Part shown: one piece after another, positions 1,679 to 60,860 of the stretch
Layout of the letters: each line of letters starts with the position of its first letter
Position numbering within the stretch: position 1 is the stretch's first letter
Source: Octopus vulgaris
Taxonomy: Eukaryota
NCBI GenBank assembly: GCA_951406725.2
Contig: OX597818.1
Location: 20,894,001-20,958,000 of the forward strand
DNA: 64,000 nucleotides
Direction of reading: 5' to 3'
The notes under the pieces: generated by a model
Seen by the model: the letters and a program-made list of their open reading frames with translations, nothing else
Database searches by the model: none
Told to the model about the DNA's origin: nothing
Program-made: the position numbers and the translations under genes

Positions 1679-2357
1679 AGAAAACAAGACGATGTGGTTA
1701 AAGTTGAAAGCCTTTGATTATAAGTCAGCTTAATCAGGTCTGACCAAAGATTGAACAACAACAAACACTAAATCAACTCTAAATCGACACTAAGGTTCGT
1801 TTACATCTTCCTTCTTTCATTAACGACGACTTGCTCTAAGCGACTAACGACTCTTACATCTATGAAGATGAAACACTCCTAACTCTTCCTTAGCATACAA
1901 CACACAGACATCACCCACATGTAGTCTAAATACCTTGTGCTGGGCTGAACAGTCGAGTCACCATCAATACATCGTTCAAAAGGAAAGATTGTCAAAAGAC
2001 AGTCACTGTATAAAACTAGTGAAACAATCTTGATATATCACCCTCTTTAGTTACAAATAGTAGTAGCTAATGGAGGAAGGAAGTAGACGTAAACGAACCT
2101 CTGTTGGTGTGCAATTTGAGAAACAAAACAGAAACATATATTCGTACCCTGATAAAGGTAGCCGGACTTACAGTGATATTTCTATGTGACTGTTTACTGG
2201 TTGCATACCCAAGGCTCTTTGTACATTCCACCTGCTGATTATGAACATTACGATTATTACGAAATTCCGAGTTTCCTGAAACAGCTGTCGAGTTAAGAAA
2301 TTGTGTATTCTCTTCTTGGTGTTCTAAATTTTGTATACTCTGTGTAAATATATTTGC

Positions 2358-2391
<34 letters not shown>

Positions 2392-3515
2392 TTACCTTTA
2401 TGAATATAAGTAGCTATATGTATCTATAGATATCTACATGGCTCAGTGGGTAGAGCGTTGGACTCACAATCATGTGTGTTGTGTTCTTGAGAAAGACACT
2501 TTATTTCACATTGCTCCAGTTGACTCAGCTGTAGAAATGAGTTGTGATGCTACAGGTGCCAAGATGTATTGGTCTTTGCTTTTTCCTTTGACAACATCAG
2601 TGGCACGGAGAGGGGAGACTGGTATGCATGGGCAACTGCTGGTCTTCTACAAACAACTTTGCCCGGAGTTGTGCCTCAGAGGGTCACTTTCAAGGTGCAA
2701 TCCCATGGTCGTTTATGACCGAAAGCTGTCTATACCCTTTACCCTATATATATATATGTACGTGTAAGTATGTATATACATCAAGCCTAATCGTATTTAT
2801 TTGTATCACTATCTCCATATCAGCTTGCCTGGATATCTCTTATAGCCACTCCAGACGTTGTCAACGAAGTCCTGAATAAAGTATTTGAAGTAAAGTTCAA
2901 TTCACTCGAGCACTACTATGTGTTTTCTATACTGTTTTCTATACTGAGCTTTCACCTATACACGCAAGTGCAGATGCTAACATATAAATGAATGATATTA
3001 CAATATCCCTACTCCCTGAACAGGACGCCTGTCATCACAGTGTTAATCATTTACAGCTGAGTGAACTAGGGTAAGTGGAATGAGCTGTTTTTTTCTCAAG
3101 ACCGTCCGGTTCGGGAATCGAAACTACGATCAGAAGGTCGCAAGTGCAAAACCCCTAGCCACTCGGCCACGCGCCTTCACTAATCATAAATGCCATGCAT
3201 TTAAAATAAAAGTTACTAGAAATGCTAACTCTGACGAGTACACCAGCGGTGTATATAGTTTGAGCGTGCTAGGTGGGTGCTACACATTTACAAAATATGG
3301 TAAATTAGTATTTATTATAAAATCAGGTCGTACTTTGCTTTCAGATCATATAATATACACTCAAAAACAAAGATTAAGTTCAAGTAATACAGGTAATTCG
3401 CCGACTTTCTAGATTCTGACAATCCGGAACCTTACGAGCAGGAACTTCTGATTTCTGCACCCGCCATACTAGTTTACAGGTACCTTGCACAAACTAGTAT
3501 CGAGCACGGTATATT

Positions 3516-4127
3516 CCTTTCTACTATAAGCACAAGGCCTGAAATTTGGTGTTGGAGGATAGTCGGTTATATTGACCCAGGCATTCAACTGGTATTTAAT
3601 TTATCGACCCCGAAAGGATGAAAAGCAAACTCGGCCTCGGCGGAATTTGAACGCAGAACGTAACGGCAGACGAAATACTGCGAAGCATTTCGCCCGGCGT
3701 ACTAACGATTCTTAATTCTTTACTGTCCACAAGGGGATACACACAGAGGGAACAAACAAGGACAGACAAACGGATTAAGTCGATTTTATCGACCCCAGTG
3801 CGTAACTGGTACTTATTTAATCGACCCCGAAAGGATGAAAGGCAAAGTCGACCTCGGCGGAATTTGAACTCAGAACGTAGCGGCAGACGAAATACCTATT
3901 TCTTTACTATCCACAAGGGGCTAAACACAGAGAGGACAAACAAGGACAGACAAACGGATTAAGTCGATTATGTCAACCCCAGTGCGTTACTGGTACTTAA
4001 TTTATCGACCCCGAAAGGATGAAAGGCAAAGTCGACCTCGGCGAAATTTGAACTCAGAACGTAACGGCAGACGAAATACGGCTACGCATTTCGCCCGGCG
4101 TGCTAACGTTTCTGCCAGCTCGCCGCC
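3516..4127 (-). mobile_element. Chain of three tRNA-derived SINE units (core gcctttcatcctttcggggtcgataaattaagtaccag)
   Basis: B-box gagttcaaattcc and one head with repeated core+tail units. The core resembles the Meta/MESC SINE domain (from recall). Confidence 0.85.
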
Positions 4128-4869
4128 TCACCGAGCACAGTATATTATTAATAAATTTGTATGATTTATACCAATGTTCAAGTACCCGTTTTTCATTTAA
4201 TTATTTTAAGTAAATTTGATGCTTGCTTAATTTAAGGCGGTGAGCTACTGTAATCGTTAGCACGCTGGGAAAAATGCTTAGCAGCATTTCGTCCGTCTTT
4301 ACGTTCTGAATTCAAATTTCACCAAGGTCGACCTAGTCTTTTATCCTTTCGGGATCGACAAAATAAGCACCGGTTGGCTACTGAAGTCGATGTAATCGAC
4401 TTAACCACCCTTCCCCCGTAATTACAGGCTTTGTGCTAAAATTTGGAACCAATATTTATTTAATTTAGAGTGCGACAACTCTTGACTCGAAAAATTCAGT
4501 AATCCGTAATAGTTGCGGAACTACATATTCTGGAAAGTCAATGTTGTGCCTTTTCACGAATAGAAATACCTTAACGTTTGAATATTTAATTCTTAGAAAT
4601 GATTATACCAGAGTAGTGAAAATGATTAAGCCAGAGTAATGATAACAACCACAATACGCCCCTGAACCTCCGCATACATAACATAGCGAAGACGAGCTTT
4701 CCTCTTTAAGGCGGGAAAATACTTCAGCTTCAGTCAGTTGCTCGTCATCAATATAGACTAAGACTTACAATACATCTGAGACAGAGCTGCTGCAACTACA
4801 CGCTCGTCCTAGACCAGTGTTTTTCAACGGGGTGGGCCTGCGAGGGTTAAAAGAGTAAGGAGCGAAAAA

Positions 4870-7474: not shown

Positions 7475-8177
7475 ATTCTTTTCTACTCTAGGCACAAGGC
7501 CCGAAATTTTGGGGGAGGGAGCCAGTCGATTAGATCGATCCAAGTACGCAGCTGGTACTTAATTTATCGACTCCGAAAGGATGACAGGTAAAGTCGACCT
7601 CAGCGGAATTTGAATTCAGAATGTAAAGACAGACGCGCTAACGTTTCTTATTTCTTTATTGCCTACAAGGGGCTAAACATAGAGGGGACAAACAAGGACA
7701 GACAAAGGAATTAAGTCGATTACATCGACGCCAGTGCGTAACTGGTACTTAATTTATCGACCCCGAAAGGATGAAAGGCAAAGTCAACCTCGGCGAAATT
7801 TGAACTCAGAACGTAACGGCAGACGAAATACCTATTTCTTTACTACCCACAAGGGGCTAAACACAGAGGGGACAAACAAGGACAGACAAAGGGATTAAGT
7901 CGATTATATCGACCTCAGTGCGTAACTGGTACTTATTTAATCGACCCCGAAAGGATGAAAGGCAAAGTCGACCTCGGCAGAATTTGAACTCAGAACTTAA
8001 TGGCGGACGAAATACGGCTTCGCATTTCGCCCAGAGTGCTAACGTTTCTGCCAGCTCGCCGCCTTCGGATATAGATATTCTTTTCTACTCTAGGCACAAT
8101 GCCCGAAATTTGGAGGGAGGGGTCCAGTCGATTAGATAGACCCCGGCGTGCTAACGTTTCTGCCAACTTGCCGCCTT
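7475..8177 (-). mobile_element. Chain of SINE units, same family; flanking cgaatatagatat-like motif occurs three times
   Basis: Three cores plus a partial duplicate. Confidence 0.85.
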
Positions 8178-8813: not shown

Positions 8814-9710
8814 TATTTATTAACTGTATTACAACATAGTGAAGGCGCACAGCTTAGTGGTTAGGGTATTCGGCTCACGTTCGTAAGGTCTTGAGTTCGA
8901 TTCTCAGCGGTGTGTTGCGTCCTTGAGCAAGATACTTTATTTCCCGCTGTTCCAGTCCACTCAGCAGACAACAATGAGTAGTACCTGTATTTCAATACAC
9001 AACACAGAATGCGCCATATTCAACAGCAATACGCAGTCAGTTATGCTGTAATAACTGGCACTCCATCGATTACAATGACAAGGGTTCCAGTTGATCCGAT
9101 CAATGGAAATTAACGTGCAGGTGGCTGAGCACTCCACAGACATGCATACCCTTAACAGAGCTCTCATGGAGATTCAGCGTGACACAGAATGTGAATTACA
9201 AGTACATCTCATTTTTGGCTGTGTTGTATGATGTATATTATGTGTTGTATTTTGTGTTGTGTGATATTCTTTTGTTATTTGTTTCAGTCATTTGACTGCG
9301 GTCATGCTGGAGCCTTTAGTCGAGCAAATCGCCCCCAGGACTTATTCTTTGTAAGCCTAGTACTTACTCTATCAGTCTCTCAGGCCGAACCGCTAAGTTA
9401 CGGGGACGTAAACACACCAGCATCGGTTGTCAAGCGATGTTGGGGAGGACAAACACAGACACACAAACATACACACACACACATATGTGTATATATATAT
9501 ATATATGAGTAATTGAATGAATTATCTTATTAAGGATAATTCGAAAGATAACCGATACCTGGGTAGCAAATTCACATCAGAAAGAATACGGTTGAAGCTA
9601 CGTCGCTAGGGCATAGACTACGTGTCTTCGTGCGGAAATTTGTATGTTTATTTTAAAATTATAAGTATATGAAAGAATGGAGTTGAACGACTAGTTAACA
9701 AATATCCTTT

Positions 9711-9795
9711 ATTCTCGACATATGTTTCGAAGGCTGCATATTCCTAATTCCGAAGGAATAAGGAGTACATTATGCAGATTTCTCTTCAGGAAAAT
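9711..9795 (-). ncRNA. Type I hammerhead ribozyme motif (canonical core, GUC site)
   Basis: Minus: auuuuc-CUGAAGA-long stem II-GAAA-CAUAUG-UC-gagaau; stem I 6 bp. Confidence 0.75.
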
Positions 9796-11991
9796 CAAGG
9801 AAACTTATGTCGACATCAAAATGCACAAAAAACTTTTAGCTGACTGCTCTCAAGGAGCCCATACATATATGTATGTATATATGTCATTTTATTTGTCCCT
9901 AGAATATCTCTCTCTCACTCTCTCTTCCTCTCTCTCTTTCACTCTCTCTTCCTCTCTCTCTTTCACTCTCTTCCTTACCCTCTGTCTGTCTGCCTAATTA
10001 TCTCTCTGTCTATATATTTTTCAGAATTGCGATATTGGAGACAAATCGCGCCGGAAAAGTTTCTCAAATCCGGAAACCATAGAAAAGTGAGTAAAATATC
10101 TATTGCTGATATCGTTGTTATTATCGTTTTAATACGTTATAAAGGTTAAATAGTTAAGTGACAAATTATCAGAAACATTACAGCGCTGAACTGAATAAAT
10201 TACAGTATGTAATTTCATTATTTACTTCCTAATCTGCCTTTAATTGTTTAACTGACGATAAGATATATATACAACATATATATTGAGATCGGATCCCTCA
10301 GCTATGACAGGGGTTGTCGGCTGGTGCGTCGTTCGCGGAGCCAAAGCGCTGGTGAGACCATAACTATCTCCGGGTCCATCCTTTAAAATAATCACAGTTC
10401 ACGTTTGAACCCCACCGCACACACGCGCGTGCATACCACTCCCGGTTTCGAAAACGGTCTTGTTGCACCTTAGTAAATCTTACTTGGATGCTCTGCCTTT
10501 AAATTACTTCTCTTATTTATAAAACTCTCTTTTTTGTCTCACTGTCAGACGAAGAGTAAGGTCCAAAAATAACGTCAGTTTCTTCACTCTTTCTACATTC
10601 GAAACAGGGATCTGGCCTGAGGTGAACTTCTTCACTTCTCCCCACCAATCTCTGGGGCCTGAAAATGAACAGAGACGCTTACCTTTCTCCCCAGACATAA
10701 GCGAAAAGAAAGAAAATTTGTTTCCTAAGATTTCAGGTTTTAAATACAATATATAGGGTAAAGATCCCCTTCGGTCATGAATAGCCATGGGATTGCACCT
10801 AGAAAGTGACCCTCTGAGGGCACATGTCCGAGCAAGATTGTTTATGGAATATCAGCAGTCGCCCATCCATGCCAGCCTCCTTTCACCACGCCATCGATTT
10901 TATCCAAGCGAAAGACAAAGACCGATACAGCTTGGCACCTGTGACGTCGCAACTCATTTCTATAGCTGAGTGTGAACTGAAGCAACGTGAAATAAAGTGA
11001 CTTACTCAAGAACAAAACATACAGCCCGGTCCGGGAATCGAACTCACTACCTCATGATTGTGAACCCAATATATCAAGGTCTATATAATCCAATGCATTC
11101 TTCCTCTTTTAGGACGGCATGGTTCGATCTGACAATGATAAGTATGTAAACGATCACACAATCAGGTTCGATCTTCTAAACACACTATATTACCTTCTCT
11201 TATTCGAAAAATTTGCTGTTCACTCTGAAATGTGATGATATGCACTATGTCAGTACTCTCAACTCGCGGTCCTGTAAATAAACTCCCATGGCTCTCGTGC
11301 CAAAATTTTCATTAGTGAAATCCAGATTTAGACCAAAGCTTCAAATATTAAGGGTTTCTATAACTAACACAACAGTGAGCATTAAACTTGCTGAGAAAGT
11401 TCAGCCTTAAATATCACATTAAAGTCGTAAGGGTTTCTCAAGCTAACATGACGTTAGACTTAACTAACTTTGTTCATTAAAATTTGTATCATATGTTTTA
11501 CTTGAATCTTCGACATGATTGTTAAATTTAAATCTAGTCCTTCGATCGATAATACACAGTTCAGCATTTGCACGTTTAGTATACGACTTTTACTGAATTA
11601 CCCTCCAAATTTGGCTCTTCCAATTGTTCCTTTAAAAAGTTGGCGACGACTGTTCTGTGTACAATGTCACAAGGATTTTTTTCTCCCCCAATTCAGTCTG
11701 TTTCTATATCATACAAAGTTATTTTTGCTGGTCATGACAAGAATGGGTAAGGAATCTTCATCGTCGTCTTTCGACAGACATGAGTGTGCAGCCTGAAATT
11801 CTACATATTATCTACGAATATGATGCAGGGAATTTCTAGAAGAAAGAAAATACCATTGTAATTGGGAATTGATAACAGCTGTACCATACTCTAGGCACTA
11901 GATAACATCACTGAAAGGGGAAATCCTGCAACCGAGAATTAAACTTAGGTCTCCAAGTTTGATTTTCGGTTTTCAACTGCTTGGAAGATTA

Positions 11992-18867: not shown

Positions 18868-19050
18868 TATGCTTTATATAAAAGCAGCAGAAATATAGCA
18901 AAAGCTGTTACTCAGAGTTTCACGTTCGTCGAACAGTTTTGTTAGAAGAAAAATAAAATATTTATTTTAACAAAACCGTCCAACGAACGTGAACGTGAAA
19001 CTCTGAGTAACAGCTTTTGTTAAATTTCTGTTGCTTTTAAATAAAGTATA
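18868..19050. repeat. Inverted repeat (~80-bp arms) with degenerate hammerhead-like motifs
   Basis: ctgttactcagagtttcacg / cgtgaaactctgagtaacag. Confidence 0.88.
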
Positions 19051-19487: not shown

Positions 19488-20139
19488 TATATGTTTGTGT
19501 GTGTGTGTCTGTGTGTGTCTGTGTGTGTATGTGTGTGTGTGGGTGTTAAGCCATCAGCAGGGAACAAACATCAAACTTGCATGTCCAGGTTTCATTCATA
19601 TCCGGAGTGGGAGAGAGAGAGAAAACTTAAATATCTATAACATCCCTTTCCTTCTCAGTTTGTTCCCTCCCACTCTCACTCTCTTTCCCCATCTCTCTTT
19701 TACAACTCTGGTCCTCCTCTTACTGTCACCTTTTTCTCTCTCTCTCTCGCTCTCCCTCTCTCTTTCTCTCTCTCGCTCTCTCTCACTGTTACTGCATCCA
19801 CTCCAGTTTGGTCCACTGCAGATGACAATAGCAACCAACTGGGATAAACAAAAAGGTAACCATCAAGAGGAGAGACCGATGATACTGTAAGAGAGACCTA
19901 GGAAGACTAAGAGAAAGGGAAACTTAGTAACTAGGAGAAAGAGAGAGAGAGAGAGGGGGGAGAGACAGAAATACAGATTTTAGGGCTTTGCAAGAGATAT
20001 TTCAGGATAGAAAGCAGAAGAGATTAAAAGATTAAGAAAGAACAAGTGAGACAAATACATATATATATACATAAATACATATACATACATCTAAACATAT
20101 ATATATATATATATATATATACATACAGACAGACACACA

Positions 20140-20183
<44 letters not shown>

Positions 20184-20724
20184 CTCAGATGCAGAGACAG
20201 GTAAGGGGGATAGAGAGAAGGGGAGAGAGAGAAAGATGAAGGAATAGAGAAAAGTAGACCAGACGTGAATAAGATAAACAAAAACAAAGAGAGATTAAGA
20301 GAAATGGAAAGACATTTGGCAAGAACAGCAGAAGAGGGCAGAAAATAACAGATGAAACTAGGAGAAACTGAAACAAGTGATTAGAAGAACTAGTAACAAC
20401 AGTAAAAACCAGGAGAGACCAAGAGAAAAAACAGCAAAGACGAAGAGAGAGCAAAGAGAACAGAAAATGTGAGGGGAAACCAAATGAGACCAAAGAAATC
20501 AAGAAAGGCCAGGAAAGGCCAAAACACAAAGAAGTGACTAAGAAAACATAGGGATGATGAGGAGAGAATAAAAAAAGGAACGAAAGAGATTATAAAAAGT
20601 AAAACAAGATCAAATATATTGAAAGGAACTAAAAGAGAGAGAGAGATAGTAAGAAAGAAAGAGAGACCAGTGGTAAGAGCAGAAGGAAACATTCCAGAAC
20701 CTCTGTGGTGTATTTTGCTTTTAG

Positions 20725-20756
20725 GAGATTCTTTGTCCCAAAATCAGGATGACTGG
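20725..20756 (+). CDS. Candidate upstream micro-exon of WDR49-like gene (ATG at 20749)
   Basis: ttttag|GAGATT...ATGACTGG|gtaagt. The phase-2 end joins 34613 in frame (MTG|FDKDLPNKL). Confidence 0.35.
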
Positions 20757-21135
20757 GTAAGTTGTATAATGTTTGATTGTTGTTGATTTAGATGTTGTTG
20801 TTGTTGTTGTTGTAGCTGCTACTTTGTTGTTTATTCTTCATTTTGATGTTTTAGGCGGTTTTATGAAACATGTTGATGAAAAATTCACATGTAACGGTTT
20901 TATAAATATGTGCATGTGTGTATATGTTAATCTAGGTATATCAATGCATATGCATATACATGCATATATATGCTTAGGCAGTAAGTTCAGGCTGGTTATG
21001 CAGTTTAGAAAATTGCCTCAGTCCTTCTGTGTGGCACTTAGAGCAAGTGTCTTCTACTATAACCCCAGGCTGACCAAAGCTTAGCAAGTGGATTTAGTAG
21101 ACTGAAGCCGAAAGAAGCCTATGGCATATGTTTCT

Positions 21136-21446
21136 ACATACATACATACATACATACATACATACATACATACATACATACATACATACATACATACATG
21201 CATGCATGCATACATACATACATACATACATACATGCATGCATGCATGCATGCATACATACATACATACATACATACATACATAAATACATACATAAATA
21301 CATACATACATGCATGCATGCATACATACATACATACGTACATGCATGCATGCATGCATGCATACATACATACATACATACATACATACATAAATAAAAA
21401 AAAACATACATAAATACATACATACATGCATACATACATATAAACA

Positions 21447-21476
<30 letters not shown>
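21136..21476. repeat. (TACA)n/(TGCA)n compound microsatellite
   Basis: Direct inspection. Confidence 0.95.
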
Positions 21477-21481
<5 letters not shown>

Positions 21482-22764
21482 CAGGTTATCCCATAAGTTC
21501 TGCCCGAATTTTGAATAAAGAAAACAAGCGATCAAATGTTATATTTAAATGAAATTTAATCATCAATGTGCTTTCTCTGATTATCTATGTCTTCCTTCCA
21601 TCTATTTACAAGCTTTTTAATCCCATCAATGTAAAACTCTTTTGGTTTCAAAGCCAAGAACTCTGAAATGTCAGTTTTGACCTCCTCCTGGCTTGCAAAA
21701 GTTATGCCCCACAAATGATTCTGTAAACTATGAAACAGATGGTAGTCTGAAGGAGCAAAGTCGGGAGAATAAGGTGGATGAGGAATTTTTTCCCAACCAA
21801 GCTCTTCGATCTTCTGTGATATGATCTTTGCAGTGTGGAGTCGTGTATTGTCCTGATGAAACATCACTCCTTTTCGATTCACTAAAGCAGGTCTTTTTTT
21901 CTTCAAAGCTTGGTTCTAACACTCTAATTGCTGAGAGTAGACTTGAACATTGATTGTTGCATTAGGTGGTAACAATTCAAAGTGAATTACTCCTTTGCAA
22001 TCCCACCAGATAGAGAGAAGAACCTTTCTCCCATGAAGTTCCCTTCTCGGTTGTGGTTGAGCCTTTTCCCTTTTACCAAGCCACTGTTTACGATGTTTAA
22101 CATTTTGATAGATGATCCATTTTACGTCACCAATCACAAGTCTATCCAAAAAGGGTGAAATGAGTTTGGGAGAATGGAGAGAGAAGATGTCAACTCGAGA
22201 TTTGCGGTTGCTTTTGGACCATTCATGAGGTACCCATTTTCCAAGTTTAGGAACCTTTCCAAGTTGTTGAAGATGACAATGAACAGTTGTATGGTTTGAA
22301 CTTAGCTTTGTTGCCAATTCTTCAACTGATAATGCAGGATTTTCTTCAAGTAATGCCTCATGGAGCTTATCATCAAACTCAACTGGATGTCCTATTTGAT
22401 CTTCATCTTCAAGGCTGAAATCTCCACTTCTGAATTTTGCAAACCATCTTCTGCAAGTTCTTTCATTCAAGCATTCTTTCCCATAAATTGAGTGTATGTT
22501 TCAAGTTGCTTCGGCTGCAGAGTTTCCTTTTTTGTACGCATAAAGCATTATGTCCCTCAAATGCTCTTTGGATACTTCCATGTTAGAAAGGGTTTTAATC
22601 AAAGAAATTTTAATTCTATTATTCTGTAAAATAATATTTAATTAGTTTAAATGTACACAAATGCATAAAAATAATTTTTAATTCCATTAGACATTCTAAA
22701 ATACTATTAAATTTCATTCAATTTTAAAAAGGGTAAAATTGAACAGAACTTATGGGATGACCTG
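21482..22764 (-). mobile_element. Near full-length mariner (DD34D) DNA transposon, decayed
   Basis: ~30-bp imperfect TIRs (caggttatcccataagttctg / cagaacttatgggatgacctg), 1283 bp, next to a TA run on the left. Confidence 0.92.
21556..22581 (-). pseudogene. Mariner transposase with stops/frameshifts
   Basis: MEVSKEHLRDIMLY..., RRWFAKFRSG, WVPHE, GDVKW, HQDN, YSPDFAPSDYHLF; split over several ORFs. Confidence 0.9.
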
Positions 22765-23322
22765 TGGGGGAGGTAACAACTTGGGACCAATTCGAATTCA
22801 GCACCAGTTCAAAGAAATCGTCTGCACTTTGCGGCCAACGGAAGGCCTCCCGGTCAATCTCAGGGAAATTGAAGTCCCCCGCAACATACACATATGTGGC
22901 TGTTTTCATGGCAGCCGCCCTGAGGATATCAAAAAGCTGTGCGTCTTGGCGATAATTTGGAGGACGGTAAACGACTCCGAGCAGAAGTGTTGACATGGTC
23001 ATGTGTACATTGCAGAAAAATACCTCCTGCTGAGATTGGTTCAAATCATCACAGGGGATTGCCGATAGACTTGATCGAACATAAATCATCACACCCCCTC
23101 CACGGCGATTAATGCGGTCTTTGCGGAACAGGTTGTAGCCGGCTATGCTGAAAACTCCATCACAGAGTGCAGAGTGTGCCCACGTTTCCGTGACTGTGAT
23201 GAAATCTGGGTTGATACTTTTGACGTAGGAGACAAAAAGATGCACCGTGTTACATAAACTACAGGCATTCAAGGACAGCAGTCTATATCTGGATTTCAGA
23301 TGATGATATACAGGGGATGGCT
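22765..23322 (-). pseudogene. Inverted AP-endonuclease domain of LINE ORF2
   Basis: LLSLNACSL, ITVTETW, RKDR..RRGGGVMIYV, VVYRPP, AGDFNFPEI, QVVTSPT motifs. Confidence 0.88.
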
Positions 23323-23324
23323 GA

Positions 23325-25079
23325 TTTGAACAACGCATTGCAGCTAACCCTGACAGCAAAGGGTTCTGGAAATATGTGCACTCAAAGCAGAGACCCCACT
23401 TTCCTGTTGGTCCCCTTCGCAATCCCCACACAGGACAGATTACTGGCAATCCCGAAGAATGTGCAGAAATCATTGCTGGATGCTATGCCGGCATCTTTAC
23501 TGTCGAAGACCAAAATGTTCCATCATCATCACCACTGACATCGGACTCTATATCTTCTATGCAATTTACACCAGCAATGCTGCAACGCCACCTAAAGAAT
23601 AAATGCAATTATGCCTCTCCTGGTCTCAATGGTGTTACATACCTACTTCTCAAACGCAGTGGGTACTTTCTTCTAAGCCAACTTTCTCTATTCTTCCAAT
23701 TCTGTCTTGACAATGGTGTTACTCCAGAACAGTGGAAAACTGCCAGTGTCATCCCTCTGTTCAAAAAAGGCGACCGCACATCGCCTGTCAACTATCGCCC
23801 CGTCAGTCTTACCAGCTGCATCGCCAAACTGATGGAATCCTGTATCAGAGAAACCCTCTGGAACTTCTGGAAGTCTCACAGCCTCATCCAGCCGTCACAA
23901 TTCGGATTTATTCCTAACTCCAGCTGCTGTAATCAACTCATCGAGTTTCTTGAGGATGTTACCCAAATCACTGATCGCGGATCCTGGGTGGATGTTGTTT
24001 ACCTGGACTTTGCTAAGGCTTTTAACTCTGTGCCACACAAAAGACTTATGGTGAAGCTTTCTGCGTTGGGTGTAAGAGACGAACTCTATAACTGGTTAAA
24101 GTCCTTTATTTTCGGCCGAAAAGAGGTTGTCACAGTTCTAGGACAGCACTCTTCGCCCTATGAGATGACATCTGGTGTGCCGCAGGGATCTGTTCTTGGC
24201 CCCCTTTTATTTGTTGCATATGTTAATGACATAGATGCCAACTTAAAGAATGCCACAGTGCTGAAATATGCAGATGACATCAAGCTGTACCTCGAAATAA
24301 AGAAGTCAAATCCTATACACTATGGATCTCTATTGCAAGTAGACCTGGACACAATGCAGCAGTGGATCATGGACTGGCAACTCAAGCTGGCTGTGGACAA
24401 ATGTACCACCATGCATTTTGGGAGGAGAAACCCAGCGTCCACCTACTCCCTCCACAACACTAGTCTCAAAAAGTCTTCAAGTGAACGTGACCTGGGTGTT
24501 ATTGTCGACAGTGATTTGCGTTGGACAAAACACATCGCCAAAATTGTCAAGAAGGCTGAGGGTGTCTTGGCATCACTCACCAAATCCTTTGTGAGCCGCT
24601 CTCCGGCTATCTATCTGCAGCTTTATATAGCTATGGTAAGACCTCACCTGGAATTTGCATCACCGGTCTGGAACCCCTATCTTGCCCAGGACATCAATCG
24701 TCTGGAAGCTGTTCAGCGACGTGCAACCAAAAGAATACCCTCCATCAGGCATTTGCCATATCCTGAACGCCTTACTTCCCTGGGCATGGACACATTGAAA
24801 CTCCGACGTCTGGCAGCTGACCTGGCAGACACCCACAAAATTATCAACCATCGCACAAACAATAACACTGAGCACCTCTTCAAACTCCACCCATCTAACA
24901 CCCGTGGACATATTTACAAAGTAAGAAAACAGCACAGCTCCCATGACTTCAGGAAACATTTTTTCACGCTGAGAGTTACTGAAGCGTGGAACAAACTGCC
25001 GGCATCGGTTGTTAGTTGTCGGAGCACTGCATCCTTCAAGACTTCCATGCTTCCTGAGATTCGCCAACACTACACTTGA
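23325..25079 (+). CDS. LINE ORF2 reverse transcriptase + C-terminal domain (N-terminally truncated, open to stop)
   Basis: FWKYVHSK, NYRPVSLTS, YLDFAKAF, SGVPQGSVLGPLLF, YADD, TRGH, FFTLRV..WNKLP (CR1-type C-terminus). Confidence 0.9.
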   Translation, partial: FEQRIAANPDSKGFWKYVHSKQRPHFPVGPLRNPHTGQITGNPEECAEIIAGCYAGIFTVEDQNVPSSSPLTSDSISSMQFTPAMLQRHLKNKCNYASPGLNGVTYLLLKRSGYFLLSQLSLFFQFCLDNGVTPEQWKTASVIPLFKKGDRTSPVNYRPVSLTSCIAKLMESCIRETLWNFWKSHSLIQPSQFGFIPNSSCCNQLIEFLEDVTQITDRGSWVDVVYLDFAKAFNSVPHKRLMVKLSALGVRDELYNWLKSFIFGRKEVVTVLGQHSSPYEMTSGVPQGSVLGPLLFVAYVNDIDANLKNATVLKYADDIKLYLEIKKSNPIHYGSLLQVDLDTMQQWIMDWQLKLAVDKCTTMHFGRRNPASTYSLHNTSLKKSSSERDLGVIVDSDLRWTKHIAKIVKKAEGVLASLTKSFVSRSPAIYLQLYIAMVRPHLEFASPVWNPYLAQDINRLEAVQRRATKRIPSIRHLPYPERLTSLGMDTLKLRRLAADLADTHKIINHRTNNNTEHLFKLHPSNTRGHIYKVRKQHSSHDFRKHFFTLRVTEAWNKLPASVVSCRSTASFKTSMLPEIRQHYT

Positions 25080-25202
25080 TTTTCTCCCCTCCATACACAC
25101 ACAAGCATGTTCACTTTCCAGACATTTCTACATTACTGCATGTACTTTATATGCACTTTCTGACAAGTTGTGGTGCACCTGAGCACTGTATACAATAATT
25201 TC

Positions 25203-25234
<32 letters not shown>

Positions 25235-25237
25235 TAA

Positions 25238-25271
<34 letters not shown>

Positions 25272-26067: not shown

Positions 26068-26110
<43 letters not shown>

Positions 26111-26127
26111 TCATGTGCTATGAGAGT

Positions 26128-26186
26128 ATTCCACTGATGAAGGCAGAGCATCTCTTATGCAAAGCCAGAAATCCAGGATCTCGAAT
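26128..26186 (+). ncRNA. Minimal type I hammerhead-like motif
   Basis: auucca-CUGAUGA-a-ggc..gcau/augc..gcc-a-GAAA-uccagga-UC-ucgaau. Confidence 0.6.
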
Positions 26187-26341
26187 TATCTAGTAATTTT
26201 TTTTTGCTAGTTTATTTTGTCACTGTCTTCTCTCCAAGTGCTATATGAGCATTTAATGTGGTTTTAGAGTCAAGCTTTGACTGCTATTTTCAGCGTAGTG
26301 GTATCTCTTAGATATCCTAAATTATAATTTTGTATATATAT

Positions 26342-39590: not shown

Positions 39591-40629
39591 AAGCATACAG
39601 CCTACACAAGCATGAAAAATAGATGTTAAATGATGATGATGACGATGACAATGACAATAACAATGATGGCAACAATAATGACAACAACGATGATGACCAC
39701 ACACACACACGCACACGCACACACACACACACACACACATCTAAAGAGTTTCCTTCAGTTTCTATCAATGAAATCCACTCACAAGGCTCCGGTTGGCTTA
39801 AGGCTATAGCTTATTTAACTTACTACACAATGGAACTGAACCCAGAATTACATGATTGGGAAGAAAACTTAGGCTGCAAAAGCCAGAACAAATACCACAA
39901 GATAACCCAATCAATCAATTCACCCCTTGCAAATGCCTCTCTGAAATGGAGTACAGTTTTGTTGAAGATTGCGCAAGGAGAACATTGAGGTTCTTCAAGA
40001 ATTAACTTCTACTAAGTTCCTAATTATAGCTAGGAGCTTTTGGAATTCCCATAAAACTTTACGATCTCCCAGGGTTGTCATTGCTTGGTTTGTAGTCTAA
40101 AGTAATGTTCATGAAGTTGACAGTTATTAGGTTAATGGTAATATTTATGTTTAAACAAAATTCTTTGATAATTCCAATTAATTTCTTCATATTTATAGTG
40201 TGGCCATTCATATTGTTTGAGATTGTCAGGCCATTGTAGAAACATGAGCTGTTACAGGACGTGTACTTCTCGAGGTGTCCTGAATAAGTCTAAGATCCAC
40301 AACCCCAGCCCTGTTGCACATCCCCATAGTCATGCCAAGCAGGAAATTACCTTTTTTGACCTATTTGGTGCCATCATGATATAAAAGTGACTTTCCATTG
40401 TGCACCTTTATTTTAATATCATTGTTGTTAATCCTAGTGAATTGCTTCATTTAGTCCAAGGCTTTCAGTTGGATGAATTTCATTATGGAAAGATAAACAT
40501 TTATGATATCAAACTGAGTGAATCTTCAGGCTGCTTTTTTCTCAGTACCACAGAATGAATGATCAGACATGCTCCCTGTTTCTGCAAAACTTTAAGAAAT
40601 GCAAATCTGAATCAAGCTGTTAATGCAAA

Positions 40630-40709: not shown

Positions 40710-41399
40710 TATTCAATATTTACAACATGTTTTAAGTGCTGTATTATTAAGTTTACTTCCCGGTAACTTAGTGGTTTGACATAAAAGACTGATAGAATAA
40801 GTGCTGGTCTTAAAACAAAATAAGTACTTGAGTAAAGCTTCTCAAGGTTGCAACCAATTTTTCTACCCAATAGGGATTTTCAATTCAATATTTAAGCGCT
40901 ATTATTTATAGCTTTTGTGTGCGCTTTGAGATATGCTATTCCAAAGAAGAAATATTTCATGTACTCTTGAAAGTTTATAAAATCCTTATGATGTCAGCAA
41001 TATCATGTTGATTCGCTAGCCTCTGCATGCATTTTTTCTCTCCTTTTTTTTTCTCTCCTTGTTTCTCTCCGTGTTTCTTTTCTGTGTATCTTTCTGTTGA
41101 AGAGCGTAGGCTTGAAACGTAAAAAACTTGTTTTATTTATATTCCTGAGCGCCATACTAATACAATTGTTTGTATGTATTCCACCTGCCTTTGTCTTTTG
41201 TTTATATATATGTATATATATATGTATGTGTGTGTGTGTGTGTGTGTGTGTATGTATTTTCCTTTATCTAGTTATTTAGCTGTATATGCATCATTTATGT
41301 ACTGTATTCCTTCCTTCAATGACTACTGTCTTTAATCTTCATCTTTCACCATCACCCACCCCCACACACACACACACACACAAACATACATTCTCGTAG

Positions 41400-48434: not shown

Positions 48435-51280
48435 AGAAGACTGGAAATGAACAGCCTTATTTACATAATGATGTATGAGTTAAACTAATTAAAACGGTGT
48501 AGATATAAATCGTCATAAATATATAATCTAAAGATGTGGTTAATGGACTGAAAAATTATCATCTTAATAATAACCGTTCCTTTCAGTGTGTCAGCGTTTA
48601 AGAAAGAATCTTTATACTTCTAAACTAAGTGTAGTTTAGAAATATAAAAATTCTTTAATTTTCTCTGAGACTGCATAGTTATGAAATCCAAGAATAAGAC
48701 ACCCGATAACGATTTGAGATCAGACTGTCTATAAATCTCATTGAAATAACGATGAGGTTGATAGACAGGAAAATTATAATCTTAGTGATAGTATGTTATA
48801 CCAGACATTTACACATTCAATATCAGGTTAGTTACGGCACCCTAACCTAACCCAATGCAAATAATGAAAAAAACTCAATGCAAAATTGCTATGATAAGTT
48901 CAGACAGTAATGGAAAATAACTGCGATTGTCAAAAAAGTTCATACTAATCCATACTCTGTTTATTGATATTGAATGGAAAATAATTTTATTTATCATCCA
49001 AAATCGGCAATATGTACAGCTTTACTTTCCTATATAAACTTCACTGAGATCATGTTTAACAGCAGATTAAACTAGCATATCAGCTACTTCTAGTATTGAT
49101 CTACGTAAAACAACATGTCAATAGCCCAAGTTATGTTTGGCAAAGAAAAATAAAAACGAGACACGATTAGTTTTGGACAGAGTAATCTCCCTTGGATATG
49201 GGTTTAAAAAAAAAACTTCCAATAGGTGATTGACAGAAAATATATTTTATTTTATACTTTGAAGCTAAAAAAACAAAAAACAAAGAAAAAACAATCTTAT
49301 CTAATATCAATTCACTGTCATATCCACATGACTGAGCTGAGGTTACACAACAGAATTTATGAATTCTTCTTCATGAATAAGAAAATACTGAATCATAGAG
49401 TCACTAGTCTAACACTGAGCTAAGACACTCACCACTTCTGTTTTCATCAAACATTGATCATGGATATCTATTCAGATCAATATCTATTCGTCATGAAACC
49501 ATGATCTTGTTGTAATATAGACACTATACTACAAATATACATATACCGATTTTTATACTCTTACTTGCAAGAGAATTTTATTGGTTTCAGATTTTGGCAC
49601 AAGGCCAGGGGAGTGTATAAGTCGATTACTTTGACCCCCTGTATTCAACTGGTACTTATTTTATCGACCCCGAAACAATGAAAGGCAAAGTCAACCTTGG
49701 CAGAAATTGAACACAGAACATGAAAATGGATGAAAAGTCATTAAGCATTTTACCTAGAATGCTAACAATTCTGCCAGATCAATGCCTTATTACAAGAGAA
49801 TATCGAGCACTAATGTTTATTGTAAAGCCATAAAGTGACACACCTCATATATAATATTTACTCTCTTAAGTCTTTCAGTCTTTGGACTGTGGCCATGGTG
49901 GGTCACAACCTTCATTCGAATGGGATAGGCTACTCAATCCGAAGAAAATTCTAACTGGGCCCCACTTGCAAGGTCATGTGCTGTTTATCTTGATTATAAA
50001 ATCACCATGTCATGCACATATGGTTGTGATGCATGTGTCTGGTGAATCCTTATCAGACGGTTAGTCATGATGGGTATATTGGGCTTCGTATATTTGTACT
50101 CCAGTGTCACTTTGATGTCATGCACTGCTTCCTCACTCACTCACTCAATAATAATTAATAATAACAAGGCCTGAAATTTTGGGGGAGGGGAGTAGTCAAG
50201 TACATCAACCCCCCCGCCAGAGTTTCACTTGTACTTAATTTATCAAACAATAAAAAACAATATAAATTAAACAAAGTAAAACTCCCAATAGGGGAGACGC
50301 TTTAAAGGTCCTTGTAGAAAACCCCACAAAAGCCATGGATATCAGATCTTTTATTTTTACAGGTGTATACTCAGAATTGTGGAGGCACATGGCCTAGTAA
50401 AAGTTGAACAAATTGATACCAGTAATTACTTTTTACTTTTTATTAAGTCTGGTACTTAATCTACATTTTCACCAAACCACTAAGTAAACAAACCAACCAC
50501 TGTTATCAAGCTGGGCAAGTGTCTTCTACTGTAGTTCCAGGTTAACCAATGTTTTGTGGGTAGATTTGGTAAATAGAAACTGTACAAGCCCCCACCATAC
50601 ATCCATTAATCTATGCTAGCATGAGTTAGACAAATACATATTAATAAAGCAATCTATGTCTACACTTTTTTAGTTAGTTTAACTTATACATCATTAGACA
50701 AACAAGGTGGTTCATTTCTAGTCTTCTATGAAAATTATGTCTAGCTTCGGGAATATATTGCATTACTTGGAATCATATAAAGGTTGACGGCAGGAAGAGC
50801 ATCTGGTCGTTAAACAAATACATATTATTAAGGCAATCTAGATGTCTTTCTGGTCACTAACCTTACCTGAATGGGATTTTAGTCCTATCACTAACCCTAA
50901 CCCAAAGAGATTTTTATTTCTCATGTCTTTGGAAAGAAAGAGCTTTCAGATGATTTGTTGACTGGGAAATGTCATCAAAGAATACCATCCATAGCTCAGC
51001 TTAGTAGAGAATATAATACACACCACACACACACATTAATGCTATATATAAAAATAATCTTTTCTACAATAGGCAAAAGGCCTGAAATTTGTGGGCAGTA
51101 AGTCAATCACATCAACCCCAGTACTTGGCTGGTACTTAATTTATTGACACTGAAAGGATGAAAGGCAAAGTCAACCTCAGTGGAATTTGAAGTTAGAATG
51201 TAAAAATGGGCAAAGTATTGCTAAGCATTTTGCCCAGCATGGGGAAATCTTTAAATGAACACTCTCATATATATATATAT

Positions 51281-51627
51281 AAAAAGCACCATCCATTCGT
51301 GGCCATTGCCAGCCTCGCCTGGCCCCCGTGCCGGTTGCATGTAAAAAGCACCATCCGTTCATGGCCATTGCCAGCCTTGCCTGGCCCCCGTGCCGGTGGC
51401 ACATAAAAAGCACCATCCGATTGTGGCCGTTTGCCAGACTCGTCTGGCACCTGTGCCGGTGGCACATAAAAAGCATCCACTACACTCATGGAGTGGTTGG
51501 CGTTAGGAAGGGCATCCAGCCGTAGAAACATTGCCAGATCAAACTGGGCCTGGTGCAGCCTTCTGGCTTCCCAGACCCCAGTTGAACCGTCCAACCCACG
51601 CTAAACGATGATGATGATGATGATGAT
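51281..51627 (+). mobile_element. RTE 3'UTR fragment with three ~62-bp internal repeats
   Basis: Repeated aaaaagcacc...gtgccggtggcac units, then the conserved 3' end. Confidence 0.8.
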
Positions 51628-53207: not shown

Positions 53208-54664
53208 GTGTGTGTGCGTGTGTGTGTGTGTGTGATTTTTCAGCATGTCTGGACTGTTTAATTCAGACACTTTTTCTCTTCATCTTTTCTCTCTTCTCAT
53301 CTATCCTTTCTGTAGAAGAGTATAGGCTCAAAATGTTAAACATTTCTTCCAATTTTCCTGAGTATCTCATTGACTAAATTAGTTACACTGGATACTTATA
53401 TTAAGTTACAGCTTTCAGAACACTAACTAGTTGAGTAGCTAATCAAATATGCAAATTAGTTAATGCTATATTAAAATCTCAAGTACATAATCACAAAAAT
53501 AAACCATGTTTGAATAGAATTGTGTTTTATCTGTCAATAGCAACATTTCGTTTCAATAAAATAGTCAATGCCTTGCTAATCACATTTCACAGAAAATTTC
53601 AGTAATGCCAGTAAAAAGCCTGGTTTTGTAGTCAAAATTGTTTAAATAGTTCTCTGAATTTTTTCTTTTCTTTAATTCAACTAAATTTTGGCTGCTTTCT
53701 TTGTGTTTTAGCTGCTAAAACACAAAGAATTTATAAGCAAAATATGCCAGATGGTTCAAACGAATGTTTCTTTATTAAATGAAACTATTTTCGAAAGCTG
53801 CACATGTAACAATGAATACAAAGATCAGGGCTATACCACATGTAAATAGCAGGCAGATCTATTGAATGTAGCACTCAAGAATATGTCATTCTGTATAGAA
53901 GTATTTTTCTATTCAGTGACAGATGATCAGTGTGAATTCTCAATACAGAAAATTAAGCGTTTTTCAAGACAAAAAAAAAACTGATATTTTTTCAAATACT
54001 TTGAAACTTCAGTAAAATATTAAGGAATACATGACCAATGAATATGTGAAAAGGGTGAACCGAACAACTTTATTTAATTTTTTATCTTTCTTTTTGTATC
54101 TCTTACTTGTTTCAGTCTTCAGGCTGTGGCCATACTAGGGCACTGCCTAGAAGAATTTTTAGTTGAATGAATTGACCCTAGAACTTTTTTTTTAAGCCTG
54201 GTACTTATTCTATCGATCTCATTTGCCAAACCACTAAGCTACGGAGTGATGGGGGACACATAGATACAAAGATCTGCACACACACACACACACACATTCG
54301 ATTGGCTTCTTTCAGCTTCCGTCTACCAAATCCACTCACAAGGCTTGGTCAGCAGAGACTATAGTCGAAGAACACTTGCTTGAGGCAAACTTCTTACCAC
54401 ACACCCAGCCCTGAACCTTTTATTTAATCACAACAAATCCCATTTTTAATTTTTTTTTTAAGTATGTGATTTCCACAATGTGCTTAATTTTGCCTGAAGC
54501 AAATTTCAACAGAACCTTTTGATATACGGAGATGTACTTGCATAGCAAGTGATTTGATCTGAGATCGTGTGCTGGAACGAAAACAATTGCAGCGTGGAAG
54601 GTGTTTGTAAGCCATTTAAGAAACATACAAAAGCCGTTTGATTCACTTCAACATTTAAGTTTAA

Positions 54665-54715
54665 TTTGTCAAACTATTTTCGTCACTTTAAGACCGTGAC
54701 CTGTTCACTGACAAA
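54665..54715 (-). ncRNA. Hammerhead-like motif with G3-C8 swapped core
   Basis: Minus: uuuguca-GUGAACA-g-gucac..gugac-GAAA-auag-UU-ugacaaa; 7-bp stem I, 5-bp stem II. Confidence 0.55.
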
Positions 54716-55686
54716 AATCCATGCTGCATCTCGGAGATGCAATAATATTTTGCTATATTGTTATATTTCGGAATGGTCATTTTTTTTTTTTTTTTTATTT
54801 CTTGTCAATGAACTATAAACATTCATAAACATAATATTTTGTTTATATATTATTGAAACAGAAGGTTACTATTGTCAGATGTAATAATTATATTTAAACA
54901 TGGGAAAATATATATCAGTTTATTAAGGAATGTAACCCATCTAGGAATTTGAAAACTGATTATGTCTAATTTAGATGTGCTATGCTTACTATTTCACTCC
55001 TTGTAAGTTTTACATCTAGCAATCTCTGATAATTTTTCATGATATCTTATCACATTTTTGATATCAACTTACCACATTCTCCACATAATAATTAAACTGC
55101 CAGTATTAGGCATGAAAAGAGAAATTTATGAAATATTCTGAATTGAAGTTTCAATATGCTAGACTTCTTCAACATTTCCAAAAAAACAGGATGTATTTAA
55201 TTCCTCAGTTTTTACATAAGGCCACAGATTTGAAGGAGAGGTTTATAGGCAGCTGAAACATCTTCAGTATACAGCTGTTATTTCTTTCTTTTATCATAAA
55301 TTAGGTACAAAGCTTGCTTTCCAACCACATGGTCTAGGATTCAGTCTTGCAGCATAGCATTTATGCAAGGATTTTCTACTATGACCCCAGGCTGCCCAAA
55401 GTGGATTTGTTAGACAGAAGCTGAAAGAAGCCTGACATGTGTAGGTCTATGTATGTATGTTGTTATTTAGTTTTATTTCAGGATTTCAGGTCAATAGAGA
55501 AACAACCGGTTTCTAACCTAGACCCAAGGCTCCAGTACACTCTGTTAAGTGGTTGGAGTTAAGAAGGGCATGAAGCTATAGAAACCAAGCCAAAACAGAC
55601 AACTGGAACCTGATGCAGCTCTCCAGCTTACCAGCTTCAGTCAAACCATTTAACCCATGCCTGCATGGAAAACAGATGTTAAATGG

Positions 55687-57326: not shown

Positions 57327-57372
<46 letters not shown>

Positions 57373-57377
57373 CCTCA

Positions 57378-57770: not shown

Positions 57771-57788
57771 TATATATATATATATATA

Positions 57789-58577: not shown

Positions 58578-58579
58578 TC

Positions 58580-60342
58580 ACCAAGAAAATGGTTGTTGAA
58601 GGGGGCTACACACCAAAGTAAGTATACAATGTTGATGAAACTGCACTTTTCTGGAAGTGCATGCCTGCTAGAACTTTTATTTCTCAAGAAGAAAAATCAA
58701 CACTTCTAACACTTCTTTTTGGAGGAAATATCAACACTTCTTTTTGGAGGAAATATCTAACACTTCTTTTTGGAGGAAATATCAATGGCGATATGAAATT
58801 AAAGCCCCTATTCGTGTATCATTCAATATGTGAAAAGTTTAATCAACCTCTGATTTGGTGTTCAAATAAGAAGGCACAGATAACCAAACACCTTTTCAAA
58901 GAGTGTTTTACAAATGCCTTTTGTTCTGCCTTAGAAAGAAACAGTGCCAGACATATTTCCAACAAAACGTTGCTTCTTTTAGACAATGCACTGGGCCACC
59001 CATCAAATTTAGATGATCTTACTGATAACATGAGAGTTGAATATATATTCCTAAAAATACAACTTCTTTGCTCCAGCCAATGGATCAAGGTGTGATAGCT
59101 AGTTTCAAAATATATTATCTGAGAAAAACTTTCAAACAACTTATGAAAGCAATTGACAGGGAGGATAAACCTACAATTAGAGATTTCTGGAAGAAATTCA
59201 ACATAACGGATGTTGTGGATAATATAGCTGAATCATAGGATGAAGTGAAACCTTCAACTTTGAATAGTGCTTGGAAAAATATATGACCAGACTGTATTAG
59301 TGACATTACAAGTTTTCCTCAAGTAGAAAGTGTACATAAAATTTGGAAAGATATTGTGACACTTGCAAAAGATGTAGTATTTGAAGAAGTCAAAGCTGAT
59401 GATGTGACTGAGTTGCTAGTGTCCTAGAGAGAAAGTCAATTGAATGAGGGGCTGATGTTGTGAGAAAAAGAACATGCTGAGAATACAGATGATACAATAG
59501 AAGTTCCACCTAAACCACTTAAATTGGTTACAAAATATATTGCTAAAGGTCTTCATGTTTTTGTTGATAATGATCTTAATCTTGAATAAAACATAAAAAT
59601 TACCAGAAGAGTTTACAATAAGTTCAGTTCCTATACCGAGCTGTACAAAGGGATACTGCATCATACAACAAACAACTTTGGAATAGCTCTTTACCCTTCA
59701 AGCTGATGTTTCTTATTTCTTATTTCTCTACTGCCCCCACAAGGGGCTACACACAGAGGGAACAGACAAGAACAGACAAATGGATTAAGTCAATTATATC
59801 AACCCCAGTGCATAGCTGGTACTTATTTAATTGACCCCGAAAAGATGAAAGGCAAAGTCGACCTCGGCGGAATTTGAACTCAGAAGGAGCGGCAGACGAA
59901 ATACCGCTAAGCATTTTGCCTGGCATGCTAATGTTTCTACAAGCTCACCGCCATCACCCCTCGAGCTGATGTTGGTAATAATGAAGTATAAGATAGTATA
60001 TATTGTCCTTCATCCTCCTAGTAATGCTCATTCCACCACCCCTTACACTGTTGTCAATATCTTTTGTGGTAAGAATGTACCCTTGCAATATTACAATTCT
60101 TATTAATTCTCTAACATATTTTTCTTAAAATGCATTTCTGTTTTTATGTATCAATATTGTTATTTTCATGTATGAAGGTAATTTTCTGTTGTTTTCTTGT
60201 ACATTTTTTAATGAAAGAGTCTGTAGGAATGCAATCTTGATAACATGAAAATCAGTAGGAAATTCAATTGTGCATTACGGGATTTTGGGTTACAGTTAGA
60301 TTTTCAGGAATCCATTGCTTCTGTAAAGCAAGAGATTCTTGT
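58580..60342 (+). mobile_element. pogo/Tigger-like transposon 3' part, decayed
   Basis: EGGYTP..VYNVDETALFWKCMPARTFISQEEK, LLLLDNA.GHP, LLQPMDQGVIASFK..Y; right boundary approximate. Confidence 0.8.
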
Positions 60343-60399
60343 ATGTATGTATGTATGTATGTATGTATGTATGTATGTATGTATGTATGTATGTATATA

Positions 60400-60444
<45 letters not shown>

Positions 60445-60449
<5 letters not shown>

Positions 60450-60860
60450 TAATATGTATACAATTATTGTGCCAGTGCACAAGATAAAACTCTGAGTTTC
60501 AGATGCCGAGGTGGAAATGGAACACCACCATCTCTTCAGTTATCCAGCCATCTGTAAAACACTATGAAGAAAAACCGTTATACAATGGGAAATGACAGTG
60601 TTATAGACCACTATTTATACAAAAGCACTAATTCGAATGACCGCTAATTAAGATAAGGTTAAAAGTTCATAGTCATTCGAATTAGCGCTTTTGTATAAAT
60701 AGCGGTCTATAACAGTAATTTCCCTTTGTATAACGGTCTTTTTTCATAGTGTTTTTCAGATGGCCGGATAACTAAACAGATGGTGTTGTGGATTTCACTT
60801 CGGCATCCGAAACTCAGAGTTTTATCTTGGCTACCGAATAATTGTCACATATTATATTTA
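60445..60860. repeat. Long inverted repeat (~190-bp arms, 30-bp spacer)
   Basis: 60445-60641 is an imperfect reverse complement of 60672-60860. Confidence 0.9.
60482..60545 (-). ncRNA. Hammerhead-like motif in the left arm of a palindromic element
   Basis: Minus: ggauaa-CUGAAGA-gaug...cauc-u-GAAA-cucagag-UU-uuaucu. Confidence 0.6.

Follow-up and report, generated by a model that had tools for sequence, protein, structure and literature searches.

The window analysed here, a 64-kb stretch of contig OX597818.1 of Octopus vulgaris (2.8-Gb assembly, 227 contigs), is microsatellite-rich, has a GC content of 38%, and carries 11 hammerhead ribozyme motifs that belong to eight dispersed repeat families, designated A to H. 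The 11 motifs had been listed in an earlier note made from the sequence alone; all are present where that note placed them, and all have the type I order, with three helices around the core (descriptor and family inspection). For six of the families, the host repeats are the 3' ends (pseudo-long terminal repeats, pLTRs) of 5'-truncated Penelope-like elements (PLEs). Hammerhead positions are numbered as in the cited literature. The motifs, and the element copies delimited around two of them, are as follows.

2144–2292 (+): family G hammerhead, core at 2149–2155, core halves 122 nt apart (helix II domain); family core CUGAUGA, stem III CAGCUG; decayed in this copy (G8A); apparent 3' end of a Hydra-type PLE.
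9483–9862 (−): family B element, 5'-truncated copy of a putative young Hydra-type PLE, terminating in (TA)n.
9711–9795 (−): family B hammerhead, intact; canonical core; stem III CAUAUG.
18905–18936 (−): family D hammerhead, inverted 5' copy, decayed (C3U and a stem II deletion; core position 18932).
18976–19013 (+): family D hammerhead, subfamily core CCGACGA (U4C), GNRA loop II, stem III CUCNGAG; G5A in this copy (core position 18980).
26128–26186 (+): family E hammerhead, canonical core, A opposite A at the base of helix II, stem III UCCAGGA; host repeat approximately 25910–26340.
29181–29259 (−): family F hammerhead, canonical core, stem III CAGCUG; host repeat approximately 29127–29267.
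41090–41125 (+): family A hammerhead, fixed A6U core CUGUNGA, stem III CG; inside an apparent solo pLTR (approximately 41004–41205) of a Neptune-like PLE.
53306–53341 (+): family A hammerhead, older copy, decayed (G12A; core position 53310).
54532–54741 (−): family H element, 5'-truncated copy of a putative Nematis-like PLE, with a short 5' inversion and a 3' tail.
54665–54715 (−): family H hammerhead, swapped G3-C8 core GUGAACA at 54708–54702; stem I 7 bp, stem II 5 bp; family stem III AUAU.
60482–60545 (−): family C hammerhead, inverted arm of a head-to-head pair; canonical core in this copy (young subfamily U4C), stem III CUCAGAG.
60766–60827 (+): family C hammerhead, direct arm of the same pair; decayed core (G5A, G8C; core position 60772).

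The family core is retained in six of the 11 window copies (B, C at 60539, E, F, A at 41094, and H), with one stem III change in the H copy and one stem I mismatch in the E copy, and is decayed in the other five (G, D at 18932 and 18980, A at 53310, and C at 60772). A strict descriptor gives three matches in the window (9789−, 29256−, and 60539−) and none in any of 25 local dinucleotide shuffles; allowing one core mismatch gives five matches vs. a shuffle mean of 0.68. The excess over shuffled sequence, a check that had been proposed with the original list, is thus present at these settings and is lost with two core mismatches (six matches vs. a shuffle mean of 3.5, not significant), so that the decayed copies are established only through family membership. 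One extra descriptor match, at 50947 (+), has the core CAGAUGA and stem III UGUCA and lies within chance expectation. No Rfam hammerhead family occurs among the 150 of 203 window matches listed, and the Rfam hammerhead models yield no gathering-level match in the loci of the eight families; these models miss the variants described here, and the absence of an Rfam match is therefore no evidence against hammerheads.

Searches of the octopus genome with the host repeats returned 162 to 2,548 first-look candidates per query, 40 of which were scored. Longer copies of families A, B, C, D, G, and H run unbroken into an open reading frame (ORF) with a GIY-YIG endonuclease (EN), and in five of the six also into a reverse transcriptase (RT), family G retaining an EN remnant only. 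Because the longer copies of these families are continuous with PLE ORFs, the window copies are 5'-truncated PLE insertions, that is, solo pLTR ends. In family B, RT and GIY-YIG ORFs are present in two loci (L086 and L087), and in family A the motif lies downstream of an RT, zinc-linker, and GIY-YIG region (L381). The family C motif is found on both sides of an open 717-aa ORF (L295 and L300) and the family D motif on both sides of an open 727-aa ORF (L290 and L291); direct pLTRs around an ORF were seen for these two families only, with the same-sense motifs 2.6–3.4 kb apart. Many copies score identically, which indicates that the full-length C and D elements are young. For family G, a same-strand upstream EN remnant occurs in four of 25 loci (L167, L176, L186, and L189), and for family H, three overlapping copies (L402, L403, and L404) chain the motif, via a low-complexity untranslated region (UTR), to an RT with a C-terminal GIY-YIG domain. 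Of the PLE partners sharing the pLTR that the earlier note had suggested looking for, RT and GIY-YIG ORFs were found for A, B, C, D, and H, an EN remnant for G, and none for E and F in the loci inspected.

The PLE ORFs have Pfam support that is weak and below the cut-off (RVT_1, E 0.002–0.05; GIY-YIG, E 0.008), and five full PLE ORFs gave no Pfam match. A protein search for longer B homologues returned one match, and the only species-named homologue of a partner RT is Octopus vulgaris P0003 (54% identity). Genome-wide, PLE proteins amount to approximately 20,000–26,000 first-look candidates, with many identical open ORFs. By their motifs, families B, C, D, and G appear Hydra-type (DKT and RW in B; a CxCX5C linker in C; CxxC and CxH in B, C, and D; no CCHH), family G being degenerate. 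Family A appears Neptune-like by the same approach: L381 has a CX2-5CxxC-type linker and the EN cysteines (CCHH), and DKG is not intact in that copy. Family H appears Nematis-like, in that the EN region of L402 resembles by eye the Nematis rows of Fig. S2 in Craig et al. (2021; PMC8557442), and its homologues carry DKSG and a C-terminal EN; a Naiad-like assignment of the H RT was rejected because the EN is C-terminal.

Several other elements were encountered in these loci. Full-length PLEs of 806 and 842 aa (L281, L283–L287, and L293) seem to represent further young Hydra-type families with their own canonical hammerheads, with UGGCCA, CAUAUG, CAAUUG, or CGAUCG as stem III; in L281 the hammerhead family upstream of the ORF differs from the one downstream. 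In the window, the end of another (TA)n-associated repeat adjoins the H copy at 54750–54780, and in L203 (657–900) the repeat that adjoins H has a hammerhead-like CUGAUGA...GAAA on the opposite strand. The only PLE protein match in the window is a decayed Hydra-type RT fragment at 40292–40555 (−), attached to no listed motif. Tandem duplications are present at 3716–4079, 7524–8015, 31786–32123, and 51279–51475 (periods 184, 162, and 62 nt), and the descriptor finds no hammerhead inside them; the duplication with the 184-nt period we take to be derived from a short interspersed nuclear element, presumably of octopus type.

Across copies the 3' end is fixed, beside (TA)n, and the 5' ends are nested; inversions at the 5' end are frequent, and tails occur on one side only. 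A 3'-anchored pattern with 5' inversions and one-sided tails is described for PLE insertions by Craig et al. (2021; PMC8557442). Head-to-head inversions of this kind account for the two closely spaced pairs in the window, family D at 18.9 kb and family C at 60.5–60.8 kb. The earlier note had read the motifs as a population of non-autonomous ribozyme retroelements with no RT or GIY-YIG ORF attached. The latter holds within the window, where no motif has a PLE ORF, but not for the longer copies elsewhere, and the idea of a non-autonomous population is not supported for the six families that continue into such ORFs. Families E and F, for which 25 loci each and three longer stretches (L215–L217) revealed no same-family ORF partner, may be non-autonomous. 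Two candidate partners were rejected: an EN beside family E in L135, which belongs to a B-related element with its own hammerhead, and an ORF antisense to family F in L148, which has no F motif behind it.

In its strongest form, such a reading would have the motifs move as short retrozymes, as unit-length (circular) RNAs mobilised in trans by PLE proteins. Besides E and F, two observations could be cited for it: 19 of the 20 H copies selected by pattern extend no more than 28 nt upstream of the core, and one U3-A8 family (stem III CGCG) forms a tandem of four hammerheads with a period of approximately 361 nt (G000:C1:8134351–8135463), an arrangement that fits a non-LTR retrozyme array. Six families nevertheless continue into PLE ORFs, no window motif lies in a tandem array, and eight of the 20 H copies have PLE-type 5' inversions; moreover, the proposal that H is a short non-autonomous element, based on its clustered 5' ends, was rejected after the 5' extension had been chained through the low-complexity UTR to the RT and GIY-YIG ORF. 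We regard movement of the motifs as retrozymes as highly improbable.

The families differ in stem III, which the earlier note had described as almost always self-complementary, and which is palindromic in all eight. As a hairpin, this stem is unfavourable (+2.1 to +5.6 kcal/mol; impossible for family A), whereas the homodimer is favourable (−0.2 to −11.1 kcal/mol), weakly so for A and H. In the B clan (11 sequences), 90.5% of 231 cells are paired and 10 of 21 pairs are changed on both sides, a covariation score reached by none of 500 shuffles, with slid controls pairing at 35–51%; the A clan (10 sequences) is 98% paired, with one pair, in stem I, changed on both sides. Together with the motif order and the PLE links, this stem covariation bears out the assignment to type I hammerheads of the PLE kind. 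Single-strand folding is mostly uninformative, being supportive only for H and B in these models. At the base of helix II, A lies opposite A (an extra base on each side) in family E (26141–26167), family F (29196–29249), and the youngest D copies (L290 and L291), and family C has a bulged C ahead of GAAA.

The canonical core (CUGANGA / GAAA / UH) is the majority state in families B, E, F, and G, in older C, and in the youngest D. It is absent as a family state from A (A6U), H (G3-C8), and the window-type D and young C (both U4C); three families of the earlier note carry fixed non-canonical cores that it had left unremarked. In the family H core, GUGAACA, the canonical U4, G5, A6, and A9 are retained and the 3-8 pair is inverted; an alternative register with a canonical core was rejected because it needs several mismatches and a G at position 17. 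Among the first 100 of 125 rows listed, 14 are divergent relatives, with other loop II sequences and C or U at position 7, that keep G3 and C8. An older G3-C8 subfamily, represented at G000:C7:11647577 and C19:24828115 and by these 14 rows, combines a stem II of 6 bp with loops that vary; two of the cases seen have CG as stem III. Family A has U fixed at position 6, and position 7 varies freely (U 36, A 25, C 21, G 18 among the first 100 A6U matches listed, counted by hand). When 46 copies of family A, taken without regard to likeness, are compared, variability among the non-CpG positions of the ribozyme is highest at N7 (35% majority) and H17 (76%), the rest of the core standing at 90–100%. 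In contigs from four runs, which are labelled as four organisms, no variant reaches 5% at positions 3–9 of H or position 6 of A, and N7 of family A does vary. U4C occurs in young C, older D, and a relative of A, the youngest D having U4; C4 forms part of a CpG, so that U and C are readily exchanged at this position either way.

Free variation at positions 7 and 17 alongside a fixed altered core suggests selection on a hammerhead-like fold in the variant-core families. The variant cores might instead be neutral accidents that hitchhiked in a few successful master copies, with the motif unselected in those families: each family could stem from a few masters, within-family uniformity alone is no proof of selection, and U4C, as a single transition at a CpG, readily interconverts with U4. 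On the other hand, two transversions are needed to reach G3-C8, which is kept in divergent subfamilies whose loops differ; subfamilies that have diverged at N7, at H17, and in many columns of the flanks still carry A6U; and U4C recurs in three lineages (C, D, and the A relative). Neutral hitchhiking accordingly appears very unlikely to us.

To estimate abundance, 80 stretches of 10 kb at fixed steps (800 kb) were scanned with a descriptor that permits any Watson–Crick 3-8 pair and one change at position 4 or 6. This gave 46 matches vs. a mean of 10.6 in 10 shuffles, in agreement with the earlier expectation of many unrelated families that are abundant genome-wide: canonical 13 (shuffle mean 0.2), U4C 10 (0), U3-A8 9 (1.2), A6U 7 (0.4), and other 7. 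Excluding the seven of the other class and four AT-rich U3-A8 singles that resemble chance leaves 35 credible intact motifs, of which 22 have a non-canonical core. Family models (at least 60% model cover) match the same sample 18 times for A, 11 for D, six for B, five for C, three for H, once for E, and not at all for F and G. These 44 matches correspond to approximately one per 18 kb, so that the density of one motif per 6 kb that had been proposed is correct for the window (11 in 64 kb) but above the genomic average for the same families. In 1.96 Mb of fetched sequence, approximately 20 families have at least two distinct intact motifs.

Exact patterns were also counted across the whole genome; they are unmatched to each other and hence give no fair ratio between classes. 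The canonical core with a CG stem III occurs 22,735 times (reversed control 2,544), the CUCNGAG clan 8,790 times with U4 (control 3) and 10,509 times with U4C (control 1), and U3-A8 13,428 times (control 230). The A6U pattern occurs 20,106 times vs. 290 with A6. The G3-C8 pattern of family H occurs 3,586 times (control 0), and eight matches to the H pattern are altered at both positions 3 and 8, none of them to C3-G8; when the G3-C8 pattern is made generic, with CG as stem III, its count does not rise above background (15 vs. 48 in the control).

Taken together, these type I hammerhead folds reside in the 3' pLTRs of 5'-truncated PLEs of several clades. We consider it likely that, in full-length tandem elements, they form dimers and cleave themselves slowly, probably with the assistance of protein, and so trim the RNA of the element; under such a relaxed role, whole families could fix altered cores (G3-C8, A6U, U4C, and U3-A8). 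In PAc, the Poseidon element of Anolis, reverse transcription is primed by the PLE protein at AT-rich target sites, with initiation close to the 3' end of the element RNA (Frangieh et al., 2024; PMC11167929). Octopus copies would likewise arise through target-primed reverse transcription, which would begin in the vicinity of the 3' end and in most cases terminate prematurely, such that the ribozyme-bearing end would come to litter the genome. In a full-length or tandem element, two same-sense motifs would pair via the palindromic stem III, and their slow and probably protein-aided cleavage would trim the transcript; the head-to-head pairs of the window, being on opposite strands, would not allow such pairing inside one transcript. 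Most solo copies would be dead relics that decayed after insertion. PLE minimal hammerheads are reported to cleave weakly and as dimers only (Cervera and de la Peña, 2014; PMC4209133), and the Anolis PLE hammerhead is protein-assisted, with a C3G/G8C double mutant partly rescuing cleavage (PMC11167929). Cleavage that is slow, assisted, or partly dispensable would explain the fixation of activity-lowering cores.

A number of observations weigh against this account. Hammerhead catalysis is dispensable for PAc insertion in vitro, and no RNA-seq ends were reported at the PAc cut site (PMC11167929). According to the text of Perreault et al. (2011; PMC3088659), A6C has low activity (observed rate constant, kobs, under 0.1 per min) and U4C has reduced activity in vitro. 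The dimer helix of H is weak (−0.2 kcal/mol), the minimum-energy fold shows helices I and II cleanly in only two of nine folded motifs (the window H copy and its relative L191) and roughly in B, and single-strand folding clearly beats shuffles only for B (z −2.65). The covariation sequences were selected by core pattern and their shuffle control ignores relatedness, the clade labels derive from motifs and not from a tree, and the lack of an ORF partner for E and F belongs on the same side.

Some of these points would also fit a fold kept as a protein-binding or folding signal, for ribonucleoprotein assembly or the choice of reverse-transcription start, with cleavage dispensable and the variant cores catalytically dead yet structurally intact. 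The dispensability of PAc catalysis speaks for such a signal, as do the fixation of A6U in the most abundant family found (A), given that changes at A6 impair cleavage (PMC3088659), and the Naiad PLEs, which thrive without canonical hammerheads (PMC8557442). The letters that are kept, however, are those of the catalytic core (G5, G12, A13, A14, the 3-8 pair, U16.1, and a non-G at 17), the free positions N7 and H17 are those that a ribozyme leaves free, and a Watson–Crick 3-8 pair is retained in three different forms. A pure binding signal is thus, in our judgement, unlikely, and slow, assisted cleavage remains the preferred account.

The association of hammerheads with PLEs is itself already known: PLE pLTRs carry thousands of hammerheads per genome in many families, including a U3-A8 variant (PMC4209133). 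The octopus motifs resemble these metazoan minimal hammerheads in the type I order, palindromic stem III, an extra base after A9, the many families per genome, the predominance of solo motifs from truncated PLEs, inverted pairs 100–700 bp apart, and the U3-A8 variant. They differ in that the published consensus is CUGANGA and the accompanying text names no core change other than U3-A8, whereas here G3-C8, A6U, and U4C are fixed in high-copy families, and in that several families have long helix II domains (54–122 nt); the supplement of that survey, as searched, contains no cephalopod. Hydra-1_Obim, of Octopus bimaculoides, is listed with a canonical hammerhead in the Hydra clade (Craig et al., 2021), and Hydra-clade PLEs share with the families described here the C-terminal EN, DKT and RW, the CxCX5C linker, CxxC and CxH, (TA)n targets, and a canonical hammerhead close to the 3' end. 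A D-like motif is present in a coral Hydra element of the supplement. In contrast to the one octopus Hydra family with a canonical core listed there, the present genome appears to have many young Hydra-type families, some with U4C, and the core string of family H was not found in that supplement. Like PAc, the octopus elements combine a pLTR hammerhead with a C-terminal EN and a one-sided tail; C3G/G8C is an engineered and partly functional rescue mutant in PAc, whereas G3-C8 is a natural fixed state here, in at least 3,586 copies.

Among natural variants, U3-A8 covariation, U4C (in a viroid), and a change at position 6 are known with some activity kept (PMC3088659). Those, unlike the octopus cores, are rare single cases, with A6C as the position 6 change, and G3-C8 and A6U are not named in the text, figures aside. 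Animal non-LTR retrozymes (PMC7229834; bioRxiv 10.64898/2026.07.22.740005) are similarly short non-coding repeats that carry type I hammerheads and are related to PLE pLTRs, but they are described as tandem units of approximately 170–400 nt, whereas the window motifs are dispersed, not in tandem, and for the most part run on into PLE ORFs. For O. vulgaris, a repeat annotation from 2026 lists 31 recently active PLE families, and its main text does not mention ribozymes (PMC13282606). Natural G3-C8 and A6U cores were not found in the literature searched, where G3-C8 occurs as an engineered variant only and the two papers returned for A6U deal, to judge by their titles, with other RNAs; figures, Repbase and Dfam entries, and some surveys lie outside that search, and a prior record is possible. 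With that scope, fixed non-canonical cores in high-copy families look new.

The swarm of hammerheads is itself an ordinary consequence of a PLE-rich genome. More tentatively, and with somewhat more doubt than confidence, octopus PLEs might be viewed as a natural mutagenesis of the hammerhead core, in which a Nematis-like family would provide the first natural G3-C8 core and a Neptune-like family A6U in tens of thousands of copies, and in which both would remain cleavage-competent as dimers assisted by element proteins; most intact hammerheads of the genome would then be non-canonical and invisible to standard descriptors, and both counts in animal genomes and claims of absence from PLE clades would be underestimates. 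PLE hammerheads are reported to cleave poorly, and one to be dispensable in vitro. Because young, open, multi-copy elements with canonical, U4C, U3-A8, A6U, and G3-C8 cores occur side by side in the octopus, the need for cleavage is directly testable. The 3-8 pair has so far been demonstrated by engineered rescue, and a G3-C8 core occurring in nature would round off the evolutionary evidence for it. As regards annotation, short octopus repeats that had no explanation are PLE ends in tens of thousands of cases, and searches confined to CUGANGA would miss more than half of the intact motifs in the 800-kb sample.

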